Positions 53,199 through 58,100 of a stretch of DNA of 64,000 nucleotides are shown here, piece after piece. How positions within the stretch are numbered: position 1 is the first letter of the stretch; the number at the start of each line of letters is the position of its first letter. This DNA is from an uncultured Acidobacteriota bacterium (GTDB lineage: Bacteria > Acidobacteriota > Thermoanaerobaculia > Multivoradales > UBA5704), in assembly GCA_963700145.1 (NCBI GenBank), contig OY969474.1:3072001-3136000 (forward strand), in the 5' to 3' direction. The notes below the pieces were generated by a model. That model made no database searches and was not told where the DNA came from. It was given only the letters and a program-made list of their open reading frames with translations. Both the position numbers and the translations under genes were made by a program.

Positions 53199-53651
53199 TC
53201 AGCGCGCCGGGCTTGGCAAGGCCAGCCCCGGGTGCCAGCCGGCGGGGGCCATCTCGAACGCGGCGAACTCGAAGGCCGGGGCCACCGTGCAGCCGGCGAG
53301 CGTCCAGGCGCCGAGCGAGCGCGCGCTCTGCCAGGCGCCGGCCGGCACCGTCGCTTGCGGCAGCTCCCCGGCCGCGAGGTCGTCGCCGAGCCGCAGCGCG
53401 CGCACCTCGCGGCCGTCTTCGGAGACCAGCAGCTCGAGCGGCGCGCCGGCGTAGTGGTGCCAGACCTCGACCGCGTCGTTCACCCGGTGCCAGGCCGAGA
53501 GCTCGCCCGCGCGCAGCAGGTAATAGATGGCGGTGAGGGCGCCGCGGCCGCCGTCGCCGGGGCGGTCGCGGAAGGTCTCGCGGTAGAGGCCCCCTTCCGG
53601 ATGGGGGCGGAGGTCGAGGCGGCGGGCGATCTCCTCGGCGCCGCCGCTCAC
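53199..53651 (-). CDS. DUF985 cupin protein
   Basis: LRPHPEGG.YRET, TAIYYLL, SAWHRV, WQSA and CTVAPAFEF. Confidence 0.9.
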   Translation of the reverse strand: MSGGAEEIARRLDLRPHPEGGLYRETFRDRPGDGGRGALTAIYYLLRAGELSAWHRVNDAVEVWHHYAGAPLELLVSEDGREVRALRLGDDLAAGELPQATVPAGAWQSARSLGAWTLAGCTVAPAFEFAAFEMAPAGWHPGLALPSPAR

Positions 53652-54403
53652 GGCCGCGGCGAGGCGCCGGGCTCGATCCGGTAGGTCAGCGTGACCGTCG
53701 CCTCGACCGAGACCTGCCCGGGGGAGACCGGCGTCGTGTCCATCTGCGCCGACTCCATCGCCATGCGGACGTTGGCGACGCGCGGGGTGAACATCTGCAC
53801 CCCGCCTTCGGCGACCTCGAGGAGCCCCACGAGCCGCACGCCGAGCGCGTCCGCCAGCGCCTCGGCCTTCTGCTTTCCCGCATTGGCCGCTTGGCGCAGC
53901 GCCTGCTGGCGGGCGGCGAGCGCGCCGCGCAGGCCGAAGTTCACCCCTTCGACCTGGTTGGCGCCGGCCTCGAGCCCGGCGTCCACGACCGGCCCGATCA
54001 GGTCCAGCTTCTCGAGCCGCACCGAGACGACGTTGGTCGCCCGGTAGCCGACGATGCGCGGCTCGGCCGGCACCCCGCGCTCCGGCGGCGGCGTGTCCTG
54101 CGAGTAGACCGGGTAGAGCTGCAGCTCCGAGGTCTGGATCTGCTCGCGCGGCACGCCGAGCTTCCCGATCGCCGCCAGCACCGCGTTGGCGATCCGGTTG
54201 ACCTCCCCCTGCGCCTCGCGCGCCGTCGGCCGCTGCGCCACGACCCCCAGCCGCACCGTCGCCTCGTCCGGCGCCGTCTGCACCTGGCCGGTCCCCTGCA
54301 CCGTTAGCGAGGGGACCGGATGGGGCCCCTCGCCCTCCTCGTGGGCCCACGCCACGGGCGCCAAGCAAACTGCCAGGATCAAACACCACGCCGCTCGTCT
54401 CAT
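53648..54403 (-). CDS. SIMPL (DUF541) domain exported protein
   Basis: Signal peptide, TVQGTGQV..APD.A, GY...N.V.V and AGAN.V. Confidence 0.9.
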   Translation of the reverse strand: MRRAAWCLILAVCLAPVAWAHEEGEGPHPVPSLTVQGTGQVQTAPDEATVRLGVVAQRPTAREAQGEVNRIANAVLAAIGKLGVPREQIQTSELQLYPVYSQDTPPPERGVPAEPRIVGYRATNVVSVRLEKLDLIGPVVDAGLEAGANQVEGVNFGLRGALAARQQALRQAANAGKQKAEALADALGVRLVGLLEVAEGGVQMFTPRVANVRMAMESAQMDTTPVSPGQVSVEATVTLTYRIEPGASPRP

Positions 54404-54472
54404 CGCCGACCCTCCCTAGGTTCGTCCCGGAAAGGCTAGCAAAGGGCGGGCCGGGCGGGCGCGAACGGTCAG

Positions 54473-54697
54473 CTAGGGTGACGGCGGAATGATGCCACCG
54501 CCTTCAACGCCATCCGGCGGTACCGGGATGTTGCCACCCAAGCCACCTTCGGGAGGCGGCGGCCCCACTGGAATGGTCCCGCCGGTGCCGCCCCCCTCCC
54601 TCTCCCAAGTTGCCTGCATGGGGCCTCCACCTCTGGTCATCCCAAAACCGACCAACCCTGCCAGGAGAAACAGGAGAACAAAATCTCTTAACCTCAC
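54473..54697 (-). CDS. small exported or membrane peptide with three Gly/Pro-rich repeats
   Basis: AAGGAGGAG RBS then GTG. Hydrophobic N-terminus, then GGTGGTIPVGP, GGLGGNIPVPP and EGGGIIPPSP. Confidence 0.7.
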   Translation of the reverse strand: MRLRDFVLLFLLAGLVGFGMTRGGGPMQATWEREGGGTGGTIPVGPPPPEGGLGGNIPVPPDGVEGGGIIPPSP

Positions 54698-54739
54698 TGC
54701 GCTCCTCCTTTCATTCGGCGCTGCACGCTAGGGCACCCA

Positions 54740-55060
54740 CTATTGAAGCGGCGGCCGGTCCTCGGGAGGAGGAGGCGGCGGCGGCGGCTTGGGCGGTACG
54801 CCGACCTCTCCGCCAATACCTCCGGTTTGCTTCACGAGCAGGCTTATCGCGATGAAAACAGCGCTCAGACCGCAAAAAATGAGCAGGACGCTGTCATAGC
54901 CGAGCAACCCGGCGATCACGCCCGCGATCGCGGCGACCAGAGCGAGGATCTGGAACGTCGCGGGGGGAGGTGACGGCCTGGGCGGTACGCCGACCTCGCC
55001 GCCTATGCCTCCGGATTGCGTTCTTGGACCGATTCGGCTGTCTCCTTCTCGTTCCGGCAT
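54740..55060 (-). CDS. small two-TM protein with duplicated QxGGIGGEVGVPPxP motif
   Basis: AAAGGAGG RBS. The motif occurs before and after the TM hairpin, with synonymous differences between copies. Confidence 0.75.
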   Translation of the reverse strand: MPEREGDSRIGPRTQSGGIGGEVGVPPRPSPPPATFQILALVAAIAGVIAGLLGYDSVLLIFCGLSAVFIAISLLVKQTGGIGGEVGVPPKPPPPPPPPEDRPPLQ

Positions 55061-55127
55061 GCCATCCCTCCTTTTGAGTTCACGGCAGAACGGGCGGCGC
55101 CGCCCGTCGATGTGTTACAGGCGCAGG

Positions 55128-58100
55128 TCATCCTGCTTCGCCGAGCAGGACGAACGGCGCCCAGTAGTAAGGATGCGCTCGTTCCTCTCGTCCGAGAACG
55201 CTAAGCTTGGCGGCGCGCAACGCCTCGCCCACACCGGCGCCCTGCTGCAGGCGACGATAGAACTCGATCATGAGATCGGCGGTCGAAGCGTCTTCCACCG
55301 ACCAGAGGCTTACCACGAGACTGGGGGTGCCTGCGTAGAGGAAGGCCCTCGCGAAGCCGATCAGCCCCTCTCCGGCCACCGCTCTGCCCAAACCACTTTC
55401 ACAAGCCGACAGCACGATCAGCTCCGCGTCGAGCTCGAGATTGAAGATCTCATAGACTTGCAACAGCCCATCCTCGGCAGAATTTTCGGAGCGTGCCAAA
55501 ACCAGGCCGGACAGCTCCGGTCGCACGTCGCTCAAGAACGCGTGCGTCGCAAAGTGAATGCGGCGAGCGGTCGAAAGCGACCGGTCCTGTTTCACGTGGT
55601 CTTCGGTCGCTTCCGGGCCGAGGAAAAGATCGACCTCGCTGGATGCGAAGAGCTGTGCGATGGCCTCGACCTCTCGGCGGCTCTCCGGCAAATCGGCGAG
55701 ATACGTTGCCGCGCCCAGCATTGGAACCTTCGCCGTCCGGCTAGCGACCGGATCGGCAAAAGCGACCAGACTCTTCGCCGCAGTCGACTCTTGGTTGGCG
55801 GCGTGCCCTGCCTCTGCCTGGAGACTGAGCAGAACGCTGGCCGAGGGGGCGTAAGAGACCATATGGGTCCGCAGGAGATACGGCGGGGCCGCAGTGCCTT
55901 CTATCCGGCTTGGCTCCGTCGAGACGAGAGCCTCGAAGGGAACCAGGTGGAGAACACCATCAGCTACAATCACGAGTTTGGGGCGCTTATTCAGAATGCC
56001 GGCGGCAGGTGCAAGGAGGAGTTGATACAATCGATGCGCCGACAAAAGGTACGGACCGAACAGTCGGCGCTCGGGAGACACCAGAGTCTGGCGTAGTCGC
56101 TCCACTTCCTCGGTGATCTCCCGAGCCGGGGGAAGCCGGTAAGTCTCGAATTCTCCCTTTGTCAGCACGAAAAGATAAGAGGCGTCGTGCCCAAGGGCGT
56201 ACTCCAGCAGAGCGACATCCGACTCCAGCGATGCTTGGACTTGTGCGAGCGTCGCGATGGGAGGATAGCGGACCTCCGCGTAACGCGGGTGCTTGAGACG
56301 GATGTCAGACTCCATTTCCTTCAGCTCGTCGAGTGCAGATTTCAGCTCGCGCCTGAGCTCGGCGGTCTCATCCGTCTCGGCATTCAGCCTCGATAGCAGG
56401 TCGACGAGGCGCGACTGCGTCGAAGAGATCTTCGCCGCGAGCTGCCGTTCGCGTTCCTTGAGCTCGGGCGCGACACCTCGTCGGACATCGATTCTGCCCT
56501 CAGCCAGAAGCTCCAAGAGGCTGCGCGCTCGCGCTCTCTCGCTGGTATCGAAGGCCTGCTCCGCAAAACCTCGCGCGGACGGCTTGCTCCCAAGCCGCAT
56601 CAGCAGATCGATGTAGGCGTCGTAGTACTCCCGGCGCGCAGCGAAGTAGGTAGCCCTTAAGTCACGGCTCAGGACCTGTTGCCGGCCCGACTCAATGATG
56701 GCGAGCGCTTCTTCCAGCCGCGGACGTGCGTCTTCCAGGCGGCCGCCTTCGCGGTCGAGCCCCGCCCAGTGGAGAAGGATGCTTGCCTGGAGGATTGAGT
56801 TCTCGGCGCGCCGAGCTAGCTCAAGTGACTTCTCGAGATTCTCCACGGGACCGTCGAGTCCGAGCCTGTGCTGGACCATCCCGAGGTCGAGAAGTGCGCT
56901 GGCTTCCTCAACACGGTTTCCCGCTTCGCGCCGCAGCGCAACGCACTCCTGTAGGCTGGCAAGTGCGGCATTTAGATCACCAAGGGCGAGCTGTGCGATG
57001 CCCGTACGGTGCAACGCCATCCCTTCCACCCGCCGGTTACCGATCTCCCGGCTGATTGACAAGGCCTGCTGGTGGTGATTCAGGGCCGCCTGTGGCTGAT
57101 CAGAAAGCGATTCGACCCAGCCGAGACTGGTAAGCGCCCGCGCTTCAAAGTCTCGATTACCGCCTGCCCTATAGAGCTCTAAGACCTTCCGATACTCGTC
57201 TGCAGCGCGCTCGAGCTCTCCGAGATCGCGGTGTAGGCCGGCCAAGGCCTCCCTAACGTTACCCAAGCTCGTTGAATCGCCGACCGCCTCCCACTGAGCG
57301 ATAGCCTCACCATAGAGGCGAAGGGCTTGCTCGAACTCTCCGCGCGTACGATGGGCAAGAGCGAGGTTACCCGTTATGTACGCTTCGCTCTCAAGACTTC
57401 CAGCTGCCCTGCTAAGCGTCAGAGCTCGATACAAGCGATCCAGTGCAAGTCGCGTTTCACCGAGGTACAGCAGATCCAGGACACCCAGGCTGTTAAGCGT
57501 GTAGGCCTCGCCTTCGAGCTCGCCGGCGACGTGCCAGAGCGGTAGGGCCTCCTCGAACATCTCGAGAGCGCGTCGCGGCTCCCCGCGCTGATTGTGAAAA
57601 AGGCCCAGGTTGTGGAGCGTTGTCGCCGCCTCGGCGGTGTTGGACGTCTCACGCCAGATCGCCAGTGCTCGATGGTAATGGTCGAGCGTCTTGTCGGGCT
57701 CACCCAGGCGGGAGTAGGCGAGCCCGAGATTGTTCAAGGCCTCCCCTTCACCCTGCCGGTGGCCGGCGGCCTTCGCCAGCGCCTCGGCTCGCTCGAATCG
57801 AGCGATCGCCTCGTGCTCGTTTCCCTGCGAGTGCAGCACGAGACCTGCTTCGTTCAGGCATTCCGTCTGACCTACTTTGTCGCCCAGCTGCTCCCACAAG
57901 GCTAAGCTCTCGTCGAACCTGGAGATGGCTTGCTGCTTTGACTGCGAAGTACTTAGCGACTGGAGGTGATAGGCCTCGCTGAACAGTTGCTCGGCTCTAA
58001 CGCGAATCTCGTCGGTGGGCAGCGCAGGACGGCGTGCTTCGAGATTCACGGCGTAGCTACGGTTGTCACCCTCGTCTTTCCTCTCCACGATCAGCCGGAA

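Follow-up and report, generated by a model that had tools for sequence, protein, structure and literature searches.

Two small motif-bearing genes in a replaced cassette with a TPR-CHAT protease beside an ECF sigma/anti-sigma pair in Acidobacteriota

Two small genes on the minus strand, A and B, lie 3′ of a TPR-CHAT protease gene in the DNA analysed here (the window, 64,000 nucleotides from an uncultured Acidobacteriota bacterium), at 54740-55060 and 54473-54697 as an earlier note had placed them, and are best explained as genuine genes that serve as accessories to a module for extracytoplasmic signalling. The core of this module would be an ECF sigma factor, a zinc-finger anti-sigma factor that has a single membrane helix, and a TPR-CHAT protease of lipoprotein type encoded by a gene of its own. 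Our leading interpretation, to which we assign a probability of roughly 0.4, is that the repeated motifs of A and B are ligands or pseudosubstrates of the TPR-CHAT protein, a DdvA-like site-1 protease acting on the anti-sigma factor. The TPR solenoid or the active-site cleft could read the motifs as ligand, pseudosubstrate or substrate, this reading could set whether CHAT clips the periplasmic part of the anti-sigma factor (site-1 cleavage), and such cleavage would release the sigma factor. The earlier note had overlooked the predicted export of the lipobox protease, the divergent ECF sigma/anti-sigma pair, the replaced low-GC3 cassette and the tails of A, which are predicted to face the cytoplasm.

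Organization of the locus

53648-54403, minus strand: SIMPL/DUF541 gene (Pfam SIMPL 1.7e-52), conserved downstream neighbour and cassette boundary
54473-54697, minus strand: gene B, 74 aa, Sec-type leader (residues 1-21), conserved spacer and three motif units, GTG start
54740-55060, minus strand: gene A, 106 aa, membrane protein built as a two-helix hairpin, each tail bearing one motif copy
55128-58508, minus strand: TPR-CHAT protease gene, 1126 aa as listed, likely start at the GTG at 58457
58508-59113, plus strand: ECF sigma factor gene, divergent from the CHAT gene (Sigma70_r2 5e-6; TIGR02937 49.6 bits, cut-off 42.9)
59110-60144, plus strand: anti-sigma factor gene (zf-HC2 3.5e-13, 49.8 bits against a cut-off of 22.2)

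Pfam identified the neighbouring genes as SIMPL, glutamate dehydrogenase, GDPD, the sigma and anti-sigma factors, PFK and GAPDH. The anti-sigma factor contains an N-terminal zf-HC2 zinc finger, a single hydrophobic helix at about residues 128-148 and then a periplasmic coiled coil and beta domain, as read from its translation and an ortholog alignment, and it is about 90% conserved among genomes with different cassettes, which weighs against the leading interpretation. Eleven other loci likewise have the sigma and anti-sigma genes upstream of CHAT. No terminator-like site was found between CHAT, A, B and SIMPL. A search for sequencing data containing the locus yielded 13 DNA sources and no RNA source.

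The small ORFs are tied to the protease, as the earlier note had supposed: the CHAT gene lies directly upstream of the A-family gene in all 27 further loci, and SIMPL follows A in 20 of the 27 loci matched by the A profile. The survey downstream of homologous CHAT genes that the earlier note had proposed gave a small hydrophobic ORF, judged by eye, 74-292 bases past the CHAT stop in 11/11 best orthologs, and the A profile picks out four of these 11 genomes. Across phyla, only three of 72 other TPR-CHAT loci (L024, L026 and L067) carry an A-like ORF, all of them SIMPL-linked, with a sigma factor detected upstream in L024 and L067; among the 12 CHAT paralogs of the window's own genome, only this locus has such ORFs.

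The earlier note had also described the two products as multi-core peptide precursors. The core-like units that recur after the leader of B would suit precursors of the RiPP type, modified and released as natural products, but modifying enzymes and transporters are absent from the nine neighbouring genes by Pfam, the sole RiPP-related match is to TPR (141 bits against a cut-off of 1125), and A is a membrane hairpin protein, so that we regard this origin as very unlikely.

The TPR-CHAT protease

The protease matches Pfam CHAT at 4e-74 (PF12770; 250.1 bits against a cut-off of 24, residues 823-1124) and TPR_12 at 1e-50. Its layout comprises a predicted signal peptide with lipobox Cys42, a beta-sandwich at residues 60-161, a TPR solenoid at 166-640 and the CHAT domain at 765-1123. 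Residues H989 and C1036, which from their sequence context we take to be the catalytic His-Cys dyad, are invariant among 11 orthologs. In the AF2 model (pLDDT 81, pTM 0.74), the best Foldseek matches were to separase (E 3.5e-16), DdvA (8rw5 and 8rot, about 2e-15) and Csx29 (3e-12), with the DdvA chains at ranks 4-5 among the PDB fold matches. The CHAT domain, the His-Cys dyad and a TPR solenoid with caspase-like fold, which mark the separase/craspase type, are therefore all present. Searching the PDB by sequence retrieved TPR proteins only and not DdvA, and PADLOC returned a generic TPR model only.

Signal peptides and topology were judged by eye from sequence rules. All 10 orthologs with a complete N-terminus begin with a leader whose n-region is basic and whose core is hydrophobic, followed in most by a lipobox Cys and otherwise by a type I site, and the protease is on this basis a putative exported enzyme of lipoprotein type. 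Tat export, by which a folded protease could meet A in the cytoplasm, was considered and rejected as an overall account: twin-arginine-like leaders were seen by eye in some orthologs and are absent from the leader in the window. All protease alleles share one full architecture at 36-52% identity. TPR-CHAT matches number 6-41 per genome in this family, and a fused DdvA-like gene is present elsewhere in the window's own genome. A complex prediction for TPR-CHAT residues 170-1126 with A residues 1-36, run with one protomer and without controls, scored 0.02 against a mark of 0.32 and was given no weight in either direction.

Gene A, a hairpin membrane protein

54974-55018, minus strand: A motif copy 1, residues 15-29, in the N tail immediately ahead of helix 1
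54824-54961, minus strand: A hairpin, residues 34-79, two hydrophobic helices with a 3-residue loop (YDS)
54785-54829, minus strand: A motif copy 2, residues 78-92, in the C tail, with eight consecutive prolines after it

The description of A as two copies of one 15-residue stretch on either side of a membrane hairpin was borne out by the translation and by AF2, which places helices at residues 34-53 and 57-79 between disordered tails; a hydrophobicity parse agrees on the hairpin. Over their 15 codons, of which those in the core read as the earlier note had quoted them, the copies differ at five bases, three synonymous, one giving S/T and one R/K, and within the 11-residue core there are three synonymous and no nonsynonymous differences. 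The best 13-mer self-match within A is 12/13, a value reached by 0 of 2000 shuffles, whose maximum was 8. Where it meets the membrane, the proline run becomes a basic, PRPR-like segment; positions A50, G51, G54, S66, S73 and L74 are conserved in the family, and the architecture is maintained in homologs P0002 and P0003.

A founds a rare family of membrane proteins shaped as a two-helix hairpin: its profile matched 21 cluster representatives among 1.84 billion, none of them a fused form of A. The sole long match, P0023 (736 aa), consists of repeats and aligned to the profile through short Pro-rich stretches; it was dropped as a chance hit. Neither the A nor the B family has a match in Pfam or NCBIfam, and PADLOC gave none for A. 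Weak Pfam matches in the A family (E up to 1), to DUF3040 in 4/15 members and to PRIMA1 in 2/15, were taken as composition effects, and the best ESM Atlas score for A was 0.82, below the lead level. No paralogs of A or B were found in the window's own genome.

According to the positive-inside rule, positively charged flanks stay cytoplasmic. In 42 A-family hairpins, a census that includes one mis-parsed protein (L110), lysines and arginines total 60 over the 15 residues of the N flank and 94 over the 15 of the C flank, as against 13 in the loop of 2-5 residues, and all A motif copies are therefore predicted to be cytoplasmic; the four-helix forms of the family end in Arg-rich tails. Since the protease and B are predicted to lie outside, this topology conflicts with a ligand role for A, and the co-localisation argument would hold for B and not for A. 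A class II holin, a small two-helix protein with both ends cytoplasmic that is encoded beside a phage endolysin, would fit the topology of A, but this candidate was rejected, as neither lysis or phage genes nearby nor a PADLOC match was found.

Gene B and the shared motif

54551-54595, minus strand: B unit 1, residues 35-49, the motif type of both tails of A homolog P0003
54515-54550, minus strand: B unit 2, residues 50-61, the motif type of both copies in A homolog P0006
54476-54514, minus strand: B unit 3, residues 62-74, the motif type of the N tail of A homologs in genome G004 (locus L012) and P0009

The hydrophobic leader and the three units attributed to B by the earlier note are present, but the third unit fits the proposed pattern GG.GG.[IV].V.P only loosely. 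This pattern has four matches in the six-frame translation of the 5,455,767-base genome, all inside A and B. The strong ribosome-binding sites claimed for the two ORFs could likewise be seen, as AAAGGAGG 6-8 bases ahead of both start codons. Compared with its ortholog in the same-genus genome G001, B has 48 identical, 12 synonymous and 2 nonsynonymous codons, a codon record which places it under strong purifying selection. GC-rich DNA readily yields open frames rich in Gly and Pro, and both genes are overlapped by antisense ORFs; nevertheless, given the canonical ribosome-binding sites, the excess of synonymous over nonsynonymous changes in B, the architecture conserved across genera and a motif pattern found nowhere else in the genome, A and B are real, selected genes, and spurious ORFs are the least credible of the explanations weighed here.

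B-family proteins carry a leader followed by combinatorial arrays of two to three units in 8/8 cases (B and seven relatives), and B units begin at acidic or Gln residues and continue with Gly-Gly. The gene is present in only 2/92 genomes of the family, in addition to two weak matches inside large ORFs, and in 7 database clusters, and most loci contain A alone. The B proteins of the window genome (G000) and G001 are 97% identical, whereas their proteases are only 48% identical; as B stays constant while the proteases differ, it is not tunable to the variable surface of one protease allele. In the three loci having both genes, B is without the motif type of the resident A (3/3), an observation with a chance expectation of about 1 in 5 by rough estimate that we did not use as evidence.

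The earlier note had ascribed the repeated motif to selection at the protein level. This was confirmed, in that synonymous sites diverge while motif types persist, and the motif behaves as a modular unit. The B units match tail motifs of other A alleles, and across the seven codons that B unit 3 shares with L012 there are five synonymous and no nonsynonymous differences. At least 8/9 identity between the 9-mers of two tail stretches was found within 9/32 loci, against 14/496 between-locus pairs. A single motif repeated on both tails is a design that emerged in two subfamilies, one from genus g1 and one from genus g7 (L120, L121, L128 and L129). Extra motif ORFs in L016 and L018 are without any hydrophobic segment, which counts against the preferred reading. 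The working unit of A and B is best explained as a short linear peptide of about 12-20 residues, whose start is Gly-rich or acidic and which also has an alternating aliphatic stretch and a run of prolines. By this reading of the sequences, A would display a single motif type, once or twice, on a hairpin, and B would array two to three types used by other A alleles.

The same observations bear on a plainer account, in which CHAT, A, B, SIMPL and a cupin gene form an output operon that the divergent ECF sigma factor switches on as an envelope response, with no direct binding among the products. The Pro-rich tails would then be spacers or fast-evolving disorder, the repeats would stem from duplication and gene conversion, and the shared types from recombination between A and B. 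A divergent sigma/anti-sigma pair beside its target operon is the usual ECF layout, and this account also gains from the operon without an internal terminator, the predicted cytoplasmic tails of A, the finding that A is the fastest-evolving part of the locus, and a duplication scar in G001, where B, a SIMPL fragment and B′ precede SIMPL. It fits poorly with motif types that are kept while synonymous sites diverge (3 vs 0 in the A core and 5 vs 0 in the seven shared codons), with the purifying selection on B, with the two subfamilies in which the same-motif-both-tails design arose, and with the confinement of A to this CHAT ortholog group, and we consider it rather unlikely.

Replacement of the protease cassette

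54400-58490, no strand assigned: replaced low-GC3 cassette (CHAT, A and B), seen as a drop in identity between conserved flanks

The cassette boundaries were taken from sliding 60-column identity windows against G004 and G001. Compared with G004, the windows are mostly 92-100% identical (85-87% at 59806-59629) until about 58490, then fall to 67-73%, and return to 88-100% below about 54340. Compared with G001, identity falls at about 58400, and the windows of B at 54715 and 54656 remain at 88-93%. CHAT and A, in some cases with B, have been replaced as a cassette between flanks of about 97% identity. The GC3 of CHAT (0.71), A (0.69) and B (0.64) contrasts with that of SIMPL (0.95), sigma (0.94) and anti-sigma (0.95), and GC3 is below that of SIMPL for CHAT in 18/18 loci and for A in 17/18. 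At SIMPL identities of 86-88%, the C-terminal identity of CHAT is 85-95% between loci with the same motif type vs 67-73% between loci with different types. A would be exchanged along with CHAT simply through its position, with the recombination anchor in SIMPL on its other side, and their joint replacement is therefore no proof in itself of an interaction.

A cassette swapped between near-identical flanks with atypical GC3 would also be expected if the locus served pherotype or kin recognition, as in ComQXP, Agr and Rap-Phr, systems whose alleles define signalling groups. B would then be a secreted multi-pheromone propeptide cut between its units, perhaps by CHAT, and the periplasmic TPR array would respond to the Pro-rich peptides thus set free, leading to anti-sigma cleavage and ECF sigma activity, with the cassette alleles as signalling groups. 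The leader and combinatorial arrays in all eight B-family proteins, the acidic or Gln start of the units and the absence of the resident A type from B point in this direction, and tandem propeptides serving TPR receptors have been reported (PMC11343458, PMC5199041). Against it stand the rarity of B among genomes and loci, its constancy while the protease allele changes, the exclusion of the resident type being of a kind that chance could produce, and the want of a clear role for A. We regard this account as unlikely.

Joint replacement of a variable protease and a small downstream gene could alternatively reflect a polymorphic protease with its inhibitor, in which TPR-CHAT would be antagonistic or self-dangerous, A an allele-specific inhibitor and B an inhibitor array against other alleles. 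Staphostatins guard the cytoplasm from secreted staphopains, and orphan immunity genes offer a parallel for B. The motif types of other alleles held in B, a cytoplasmic A suited to a pre-export safeguard and the securin-separase precedent among the structural matches would agree with it. Nevertheless, the alleles keep their whole architecture at 36-52% identity with no toxin-domain swaps, the conserved sigma/anti-sigma link favours signalling, a Sec-exported enzyme is unfolded in the cytoplasm and the leader in the window has no twin-arginine motif, and no delivery system was found nearby, which together make an inhibitor pair decidedly improbable.

Relation to known systems

The preferred reading, in which the motifs are ligands or pseudosubstrates of the protease, could be compared with several described systems. 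In separase-securin, separase-SCC1 and the Craspase pair Csx29-Csx30, the partner is disordered and lies bound along the protease, which it either inhibits or serves as substrate, and the TPR-like solenoid with CHAT fold that they share with the present protease is its top structural match. Those systems are cytoplasmic with long protein partners, whereas here the motifs are short and modular, on a hairpin or behind a leader, and binding would be by analogy.

The closest arrangement is that of Myxococcus xanthus, where DdvA joins a zinc-finger anti-sigma factor to a periplasmic TPR-CHAT in one protein, with the ECF sigma factor DdvS (PMC11506125). DdvA was proposed there as a site-1 protease and would be the only described periplasmic TPR-CHAT, its trigger being "elusive" in the words of its authors (PMC11506125). 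In a system of this type the anti-sigma factor would be cut first at site 1 and then by RseP. Both systems have an adjacent ECF sigma factor, a ZAS anti-sigma factor with a zinc finger and one membrane helix (the helix being read here from translation) and a TPR-CHAT with a His-Cys dyad, periplasmic in DdvA and putatively extracytoplasmic here. Unlike DdvA, the TPR-CHAT of this locus is not fused and is a separate divergent gene with its own lipoprotein-type leader, the anti-sigma factor has another periplasmic domain, and the neighbours are SIMPL and metabolic genes instead of CBASS and CRISPR; motif genes such as A and B are absent from the DdvA description as far as its accessible part goes (PMC11506125). 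The module is thus a split version of the DdvA/DdvS arrangement and not a member of it. In the literature found, small motif genes beside TPR-CHAT are not described, although the list of DdvA-like proteins, a table outside the accessible part (PMC11506125 Table S7), might include split forms.

A functional analogy only is provided by small proteins whose terminal peptide activates a site-1 protease (PMC12780092, PMC8545111). In the MucE/DimA-AlgW-MucA-AlgU pathway of Pseudomonas, the short terminal peptide of a small envelope protein reportedly turns on the site-1 protease, the anti-sigma factor is cut and the ECF-type sigma factor is freed (PMC3819740, PMC8545111, PMC12780092). B resembles MucE and DimA as a small leader-bearing protein in a sigma/anti-sigma/protease locus. 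Their reader is the PDZ domain of an HtrA serine protease, whereas the candidate reader here is the TPR array of a cysteine protease with no PDZ among its Pfam matches, and their motif is an aromatic C-terminal tripeptide, whereas B ends Pro-Ser-Pro and its Gly/Pro modules are internal and arrayed.

Tandem pheromone propeptides serving TPR receptors (PMC11343458) recall B in form. Like Rap-Phr and other RRNPPA cassettes, the locus has a TPR gene followed by a small, here predicted, secreted propeptide gene with several units in a mobile, diversifying cassette (PMC11343458, PMC5199041). RRNPPA proteins are cytoplasmic Bacillota regulators sensing imported peptides, whereas the TPR protein here is a predicted exported Acidobacteriota protease with a leader and a protease domain, and the first downstream gene is a membrane hairpin instead of a propeptide, leaving B propeptide-like in form only. 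A in turn resembles PRiMA (PF16101) in having a proline-rich stretch by a membrane helix that could organise a partner; PRiMA is eukaryotic and single-pass, and the matches, with a best E of 0.029 in two of the 15 A-family members, are sub-threshold and probably composition-driven, so that this too is analogy only.

Biological implications

Bacterial TPR-CHAT proteases are widespread, and to our knowledge their signals and substrates are essentially unknown outside the CRISPR-linked Craspase. The present locus is a simpler, split system in which two tiny genes give defined candidate ligands or substrates of 12-20 residues, testable as synthetic peptides. It defines two unannotated small-protein families and reveals allelic cassette replacement between near-identical flanks in Acidobacteriota, a pattern typical of recognition or conflict loci.

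A bolder form of the preferred reading, which we hold to be speculative and about as unlikely as the signalling-group account, would see an extracytoplasmic peptide code in which shuffled epitopes on hairpin A and secreted B arrays are read allele-specifically by a periplasmic TPR-CHAT that cuts the anti-sigma factor. If true, such a code would give bacterial TPR-CHAT proteins outside CRISPR systems their first candidate natural ligands and could serve diderm soil bacteria for telling self from non-self or for sensing their population.

Motif-bearing small genes

The locus comprises the following genes:

TPR-CHAT gene, 55128-58508, minus strand, directly upstream of A
Gene A, 54740-55060, minus strand, 106 aa, in which a 15-residue stretch occurs twice (residues 15-29 and 78-92)
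Gene B, 54473-54697, minus strand, 74 aa, with a hydrophobic leader and three units
SIMPL gene, 53648-54403, minus strand, downstream of B
Sigma gene, 58508-59113, plus strand, divergent from CHAT
Anti-sigma gene, 59110-60144, plus strand, divergent from CHAT

An earlier note had reported two small ORFs with a repeated glycine-rich motif at this place. Both were found on the minus strand directly 3′ of the TPR-CHAT gene, each with the claimed ribosome-binding site (AAAGGAGG, correctly spaced before the start codon). When the two stretches of A were aligned codon by codon, the differences quoted for the core copies proved accurate, with 5 of 45 bases differing in all (three synonymous changes, one S/T and one R/K). 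B has the leader and the three units ascribed to it, the third being looser than the pattern GG.GG.[IV].V.P. The repeat in A is far beyond chance, its top 13-mer self-match being 12/13 against a maximum of 8 in 2000 shuffles, and a six-frame translation of the whole 5.46-Mb genome yielded four matches to GG.GG.[IV].V.P, all in A and B. In an AF2 model the two stretches of A lie in disordered tails and flank two helices (residues 34-53 and 57-79), and this motif–hairpin–motif architecture is retained in two database relatives (73% and 66% identity). Compared with its counterpart in G001, a genome of the same genus, B has 48 identical codons, 12 synonymous changes and 2 amino-acid changes, indicating strong purifying selection in the B frame. 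Judged from these sequence features, A and B are genuine genes, and the view that they are spurious ORFs is scarcely credible.

A profile built from five A proteins and searched against 1.84 billion cluster representatives (E up to 0.001) matched 21 proteins, 20 of them of 78-150 aa; the remaining match, a long repeat protein, was regarded as due to chance. Seven B relatives (60-79 aa) were found among 5.8 billion clusters. Both families are absent from Pfam, NCBIfam and PADLOC, the window's own genome holds no paralog of either gene, and literature searches on CHAT-domain and TPR-CHAT proteins turned up no described counterpart of A or B. The A-family hairpin has conserved small and polar residues, and the N tail ends in aliphatic-Pro-aliphatic-Pro-Pro, usually with Pro-Arg-Pro-Arg directly at helix 1.

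A shared pool of motifs

The A-family stretch ahead of the aliphatic-Pro segment comes in discrete types, and in many members the type occurs twice, the additional copy lying on the C tail (window A, P0002, P0003), in a second motif–hairpin unit (P0006, P0008, the G001 protein), next to the first as a tandem repeat (P0012) or in a separate small ORF (loci L016 and L018). Measured as the best identity between two non-overlapping tail stretches, 9-mer identity reached at least 8/9 within 9 of 32 loci, and in 14 of 496 pairs between loci. Genus g7 (L120, L121, L128, L129) carries one motif on both tails, with sequences unrelated to the others, and in L128 a residue differing from its relatives is altered in both tails. 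At L016 and L018 the extra ORF (48-52 aa, without a hydrophobic segment) follows the CHAT stop and precedes the hairpin ORF, whose motif it repeats with 9/9 residues identical.

In all eight B-family proteins, leader and spacer are conserved, and after them come 2-3 units out of a shared pool. The three units of window B are the A motifs of P0003, P0006 and P0009/G004 (G004 being a related genome), one unit of a second B copy in G001 is the A motif of P0011, and the B-family proteins P0027 and P0031 hold the motif type of the window's A; one metagenome locus has the order CHAT, A, B, SIMPL with another motif combination. A single A/B motif pair has DNA for both partners; its 7 shared codons show 5 synonymous and 0 nonsynonymous differences, which argues that motif types are kept by peptide-level selection, not by recent copying. 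That the units are cores of RiPP precursors, close to one suggestion of the earlier note, is very improbable.

Replacement of the CHAT–A cassette

Between the window and G004, the anti-sigma and sigma genes are mostly 92-100% identical in 60-column windows (85-87% at 59806-59629); at the very start of CHAT (about 58490) identity falls to 67-73%, and within SIMPL, from about 54340 on, it is back at 88-100%. In the comparison with G001, identity falls near 58400; in the B windows at positions 54715 and 54656 it stays at 88-93%. Protein identities to G004 and G001, respectively, are 97% and 94% for sigma, 52% and 48% for CHAT, and 42% and 37% for A. GC3 is 0.71 in CHAT, 0.69 in A and 0.64 in B, against 0.94-0.97 in the flanking genes; in 18 loci of other genera it lies below that of SIMPL for the CHAT C-terminus in 18/18 and for A in 17/18 (means 0.79 and 0.77, with 0.92 for SIMPL). 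Where SIMPL identity is 86-88% in other genera, CHAT C-terminal identity is 85-95% if the motif type is shared and 67-73% if the types differ. The contrast in identity between flanks and cassette, the GC3 values and the tracking of motif type by CHAT identity indicate that CHAT and A travel as one module, and on this comparative evidence CHAT with A (and B) is a replaced cassette. That such a cassette serves as a pherotype or kin-recognition system is unlikely. At the cassette boundary in G001 (L013:5532-6375), B is followed by a fragment of 73 bases from the 5′ end of SIMPL, the diverged second B copy and intact SIMPL, an arrangement that is a duplication or recombination scar.

A survey downstream of CHAT orthologs, proposed in the earlier note, bore out the association, with a small ORF with hydrophobic helices in 11/11 best orthologs of related genomes (read by eye; ORF starts 74-292 bases past the CHAT stop). 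The A profile recognises 4 of these 11 ortholog genomes, the ORFs of the others resembling A by position and having another Pro-rich motif at the N-terminus; a broader A profile has matches in 34 of 92 family genomes and 7 of 11 genera. The CHAT C-terminus lies directly upstream of A, on the same strand, in 27/27 loci examined, and SIMPL was detected downstream in 20 of them; L014 and L015 account for two of the 27. Among 72 TPR-CHAT loci of other lineages or phyla with enough downstream sequence, an A-like ORF occurs in only 3 (L024, L026, L067), followed by SIMPL in all three and with sigma detected upstream in L024 and L067. The window's genome has 12 full CHAT paralogs, and such ORFs lie beside only the window's CHAT gene. 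Several of these counts are the author's reading of ORF lists, and related genomes are not independent samples. No terminator-like site was found between CHAT, A, B and SIMPL. That the locus encodes a protease–inhibitor (immunity-like) pair is quite improbable.

Protease and regulatory neighbours

The CHAT gene product (1126 aa) has seven TPR_12 stretches and a CHAT domain. Its AF2 model (pLDDT 81) comprises a beta-sandwich (residues 60-161), a TPR solenoid (166-640) and the CHAT domain (765-1123), H989 and C1036 are invariant across the ortholog alignment, and the PDB entries that match its fold best are separase, DdvA (an anti-sigma) and Csx29; by domain, dyad and fold alike, the protease belongs to the CHAT family. 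Its N-terminus combines a basic stretch and a hydrophobic core with a lipobox Cys (residue 42), and all 10 orthologs whose N-terminus is complete carry a leader, which in most of them includes a lipobox and in one a type I site (all by eye); the protease is probably exported. The confidently modelled all-beta domain at residues 60-161, between leader and TPR array, presumably resembles a pre-peptidase-type beta-sandwich.

An ECF sigma gene and a zf-HC2 anti-sigma gene lie divergently upstream of CHAT, the anti-sigma being predicted to have one membrane helix followed by a periplasmic coiled coil and beta domain. The pair stands upstream of CHAT in 9 of 11 related loci, as well as in L024 and L067; one of the two loci without it ends at a contig edge and the other has a second CHAT gene intervening. 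CHAT, A and B could be a plain output operon under sigma control, with no binding at all, which is possible though rather doubtful. Apart from the N-terminal zf-HC2, the anti-sigma contains another Cys-x-x-Cys block around residue 84 and a Pro/Gly-rich stretch about 20 residues past the membrane helix, and GC in its gene reaches 0.82-0.84. The ORF listed at 61328-63796 (minus strand, 822 aa) has GAPDH domains confined to residues 492-802 and overlaps the end of the phosphofructokinase gene; its start is probably over-extended in GC-rich DNA.

Possible mechanism and its main difficulty

With a probability of roughly 40%, we suggest that TPR-CHAT recognises the motifs as short linear ligands, pseudosubstrates or substrates, and that it is itself the protease responsible for site-1 cleavage of the adjacent anti-sigma; B would be a periplasmic partner of the protease and A an allele-linked presenter of the motif, the contact between A and the protease being the weakest step. 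Published work describes fused DdvA as the proposed site-1 protease of an anti-sigma (PMC11506125), activation of AlgW by MucE or DimA (PMC8545111, PMC3819740, PMC12780092) and tandem Phr propeptides that serve TPR receptors (PMC11343458); the activation logic of MucE/DimA–AlgW and the tandem Phr propeptides are comparable to the proposed role of B. The locus would work like DdvA/DdvS; nevertheless, the defining TPR-CHAT/anti-sigma fusion is absent here, which places it outside that type, as a split variant. A truly new peptide-code system has a minority chance.

The main difficulty for the proposed mechanism lies in topology, which, like the leaders, was judged by sequence rules. Across 42 A-family hairpins (one mis-parsed in the count), K+R amount to 60 in the N flank (15 residues), 13 in the loop (2-5 residues) and 94 in the C flank (15 residues), with at least one K/R in 38, 13 and 40 of the 42 proteins, respectively; four-helix members have Arg-rich tail ends. 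By the positive-inside rule, positively charged flanks lie on the cytoplasmic side, so that every A motif copy is predicted to be cytoplasmic, and the B units, since they come after the leader, are predicted to be outside, as is the protease. One motif vocabulary would then occur on both sides of the membrane, which no model here fully explains.

Elsewhere in the window's own genome (G000:C1:1070732-1076475; L139:233-5975), an ECF sigma gene adjoins a gene whose 1360-aa product combines TPR repeats and a CHAT domain with a hydrophobic helix around residue 135-155; by these predicted features the product is a DdvA/DdvS-like fused anti-sigma–protease. A CHAT-SAVED gene adjoins this fused gene, and the sigma/fused DdvA-like/CHAT-SAVED locus resembles the layout of the Myxococcus defence-island regulator. 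To judge by its named relatives, the organism is probably an acidobacterium (Acidobacteriota) of the class Thermoanaerobaculia. TPR-CHAT genes are strongly expanded in the family, with 6-41 matches per genome, and in the window's genome an N-terminal hydrophobic or lipobox-like segment occurs in the majority of the 12 full CHAT paralogs, so that exported CHAT proteases may be the rule in this family.
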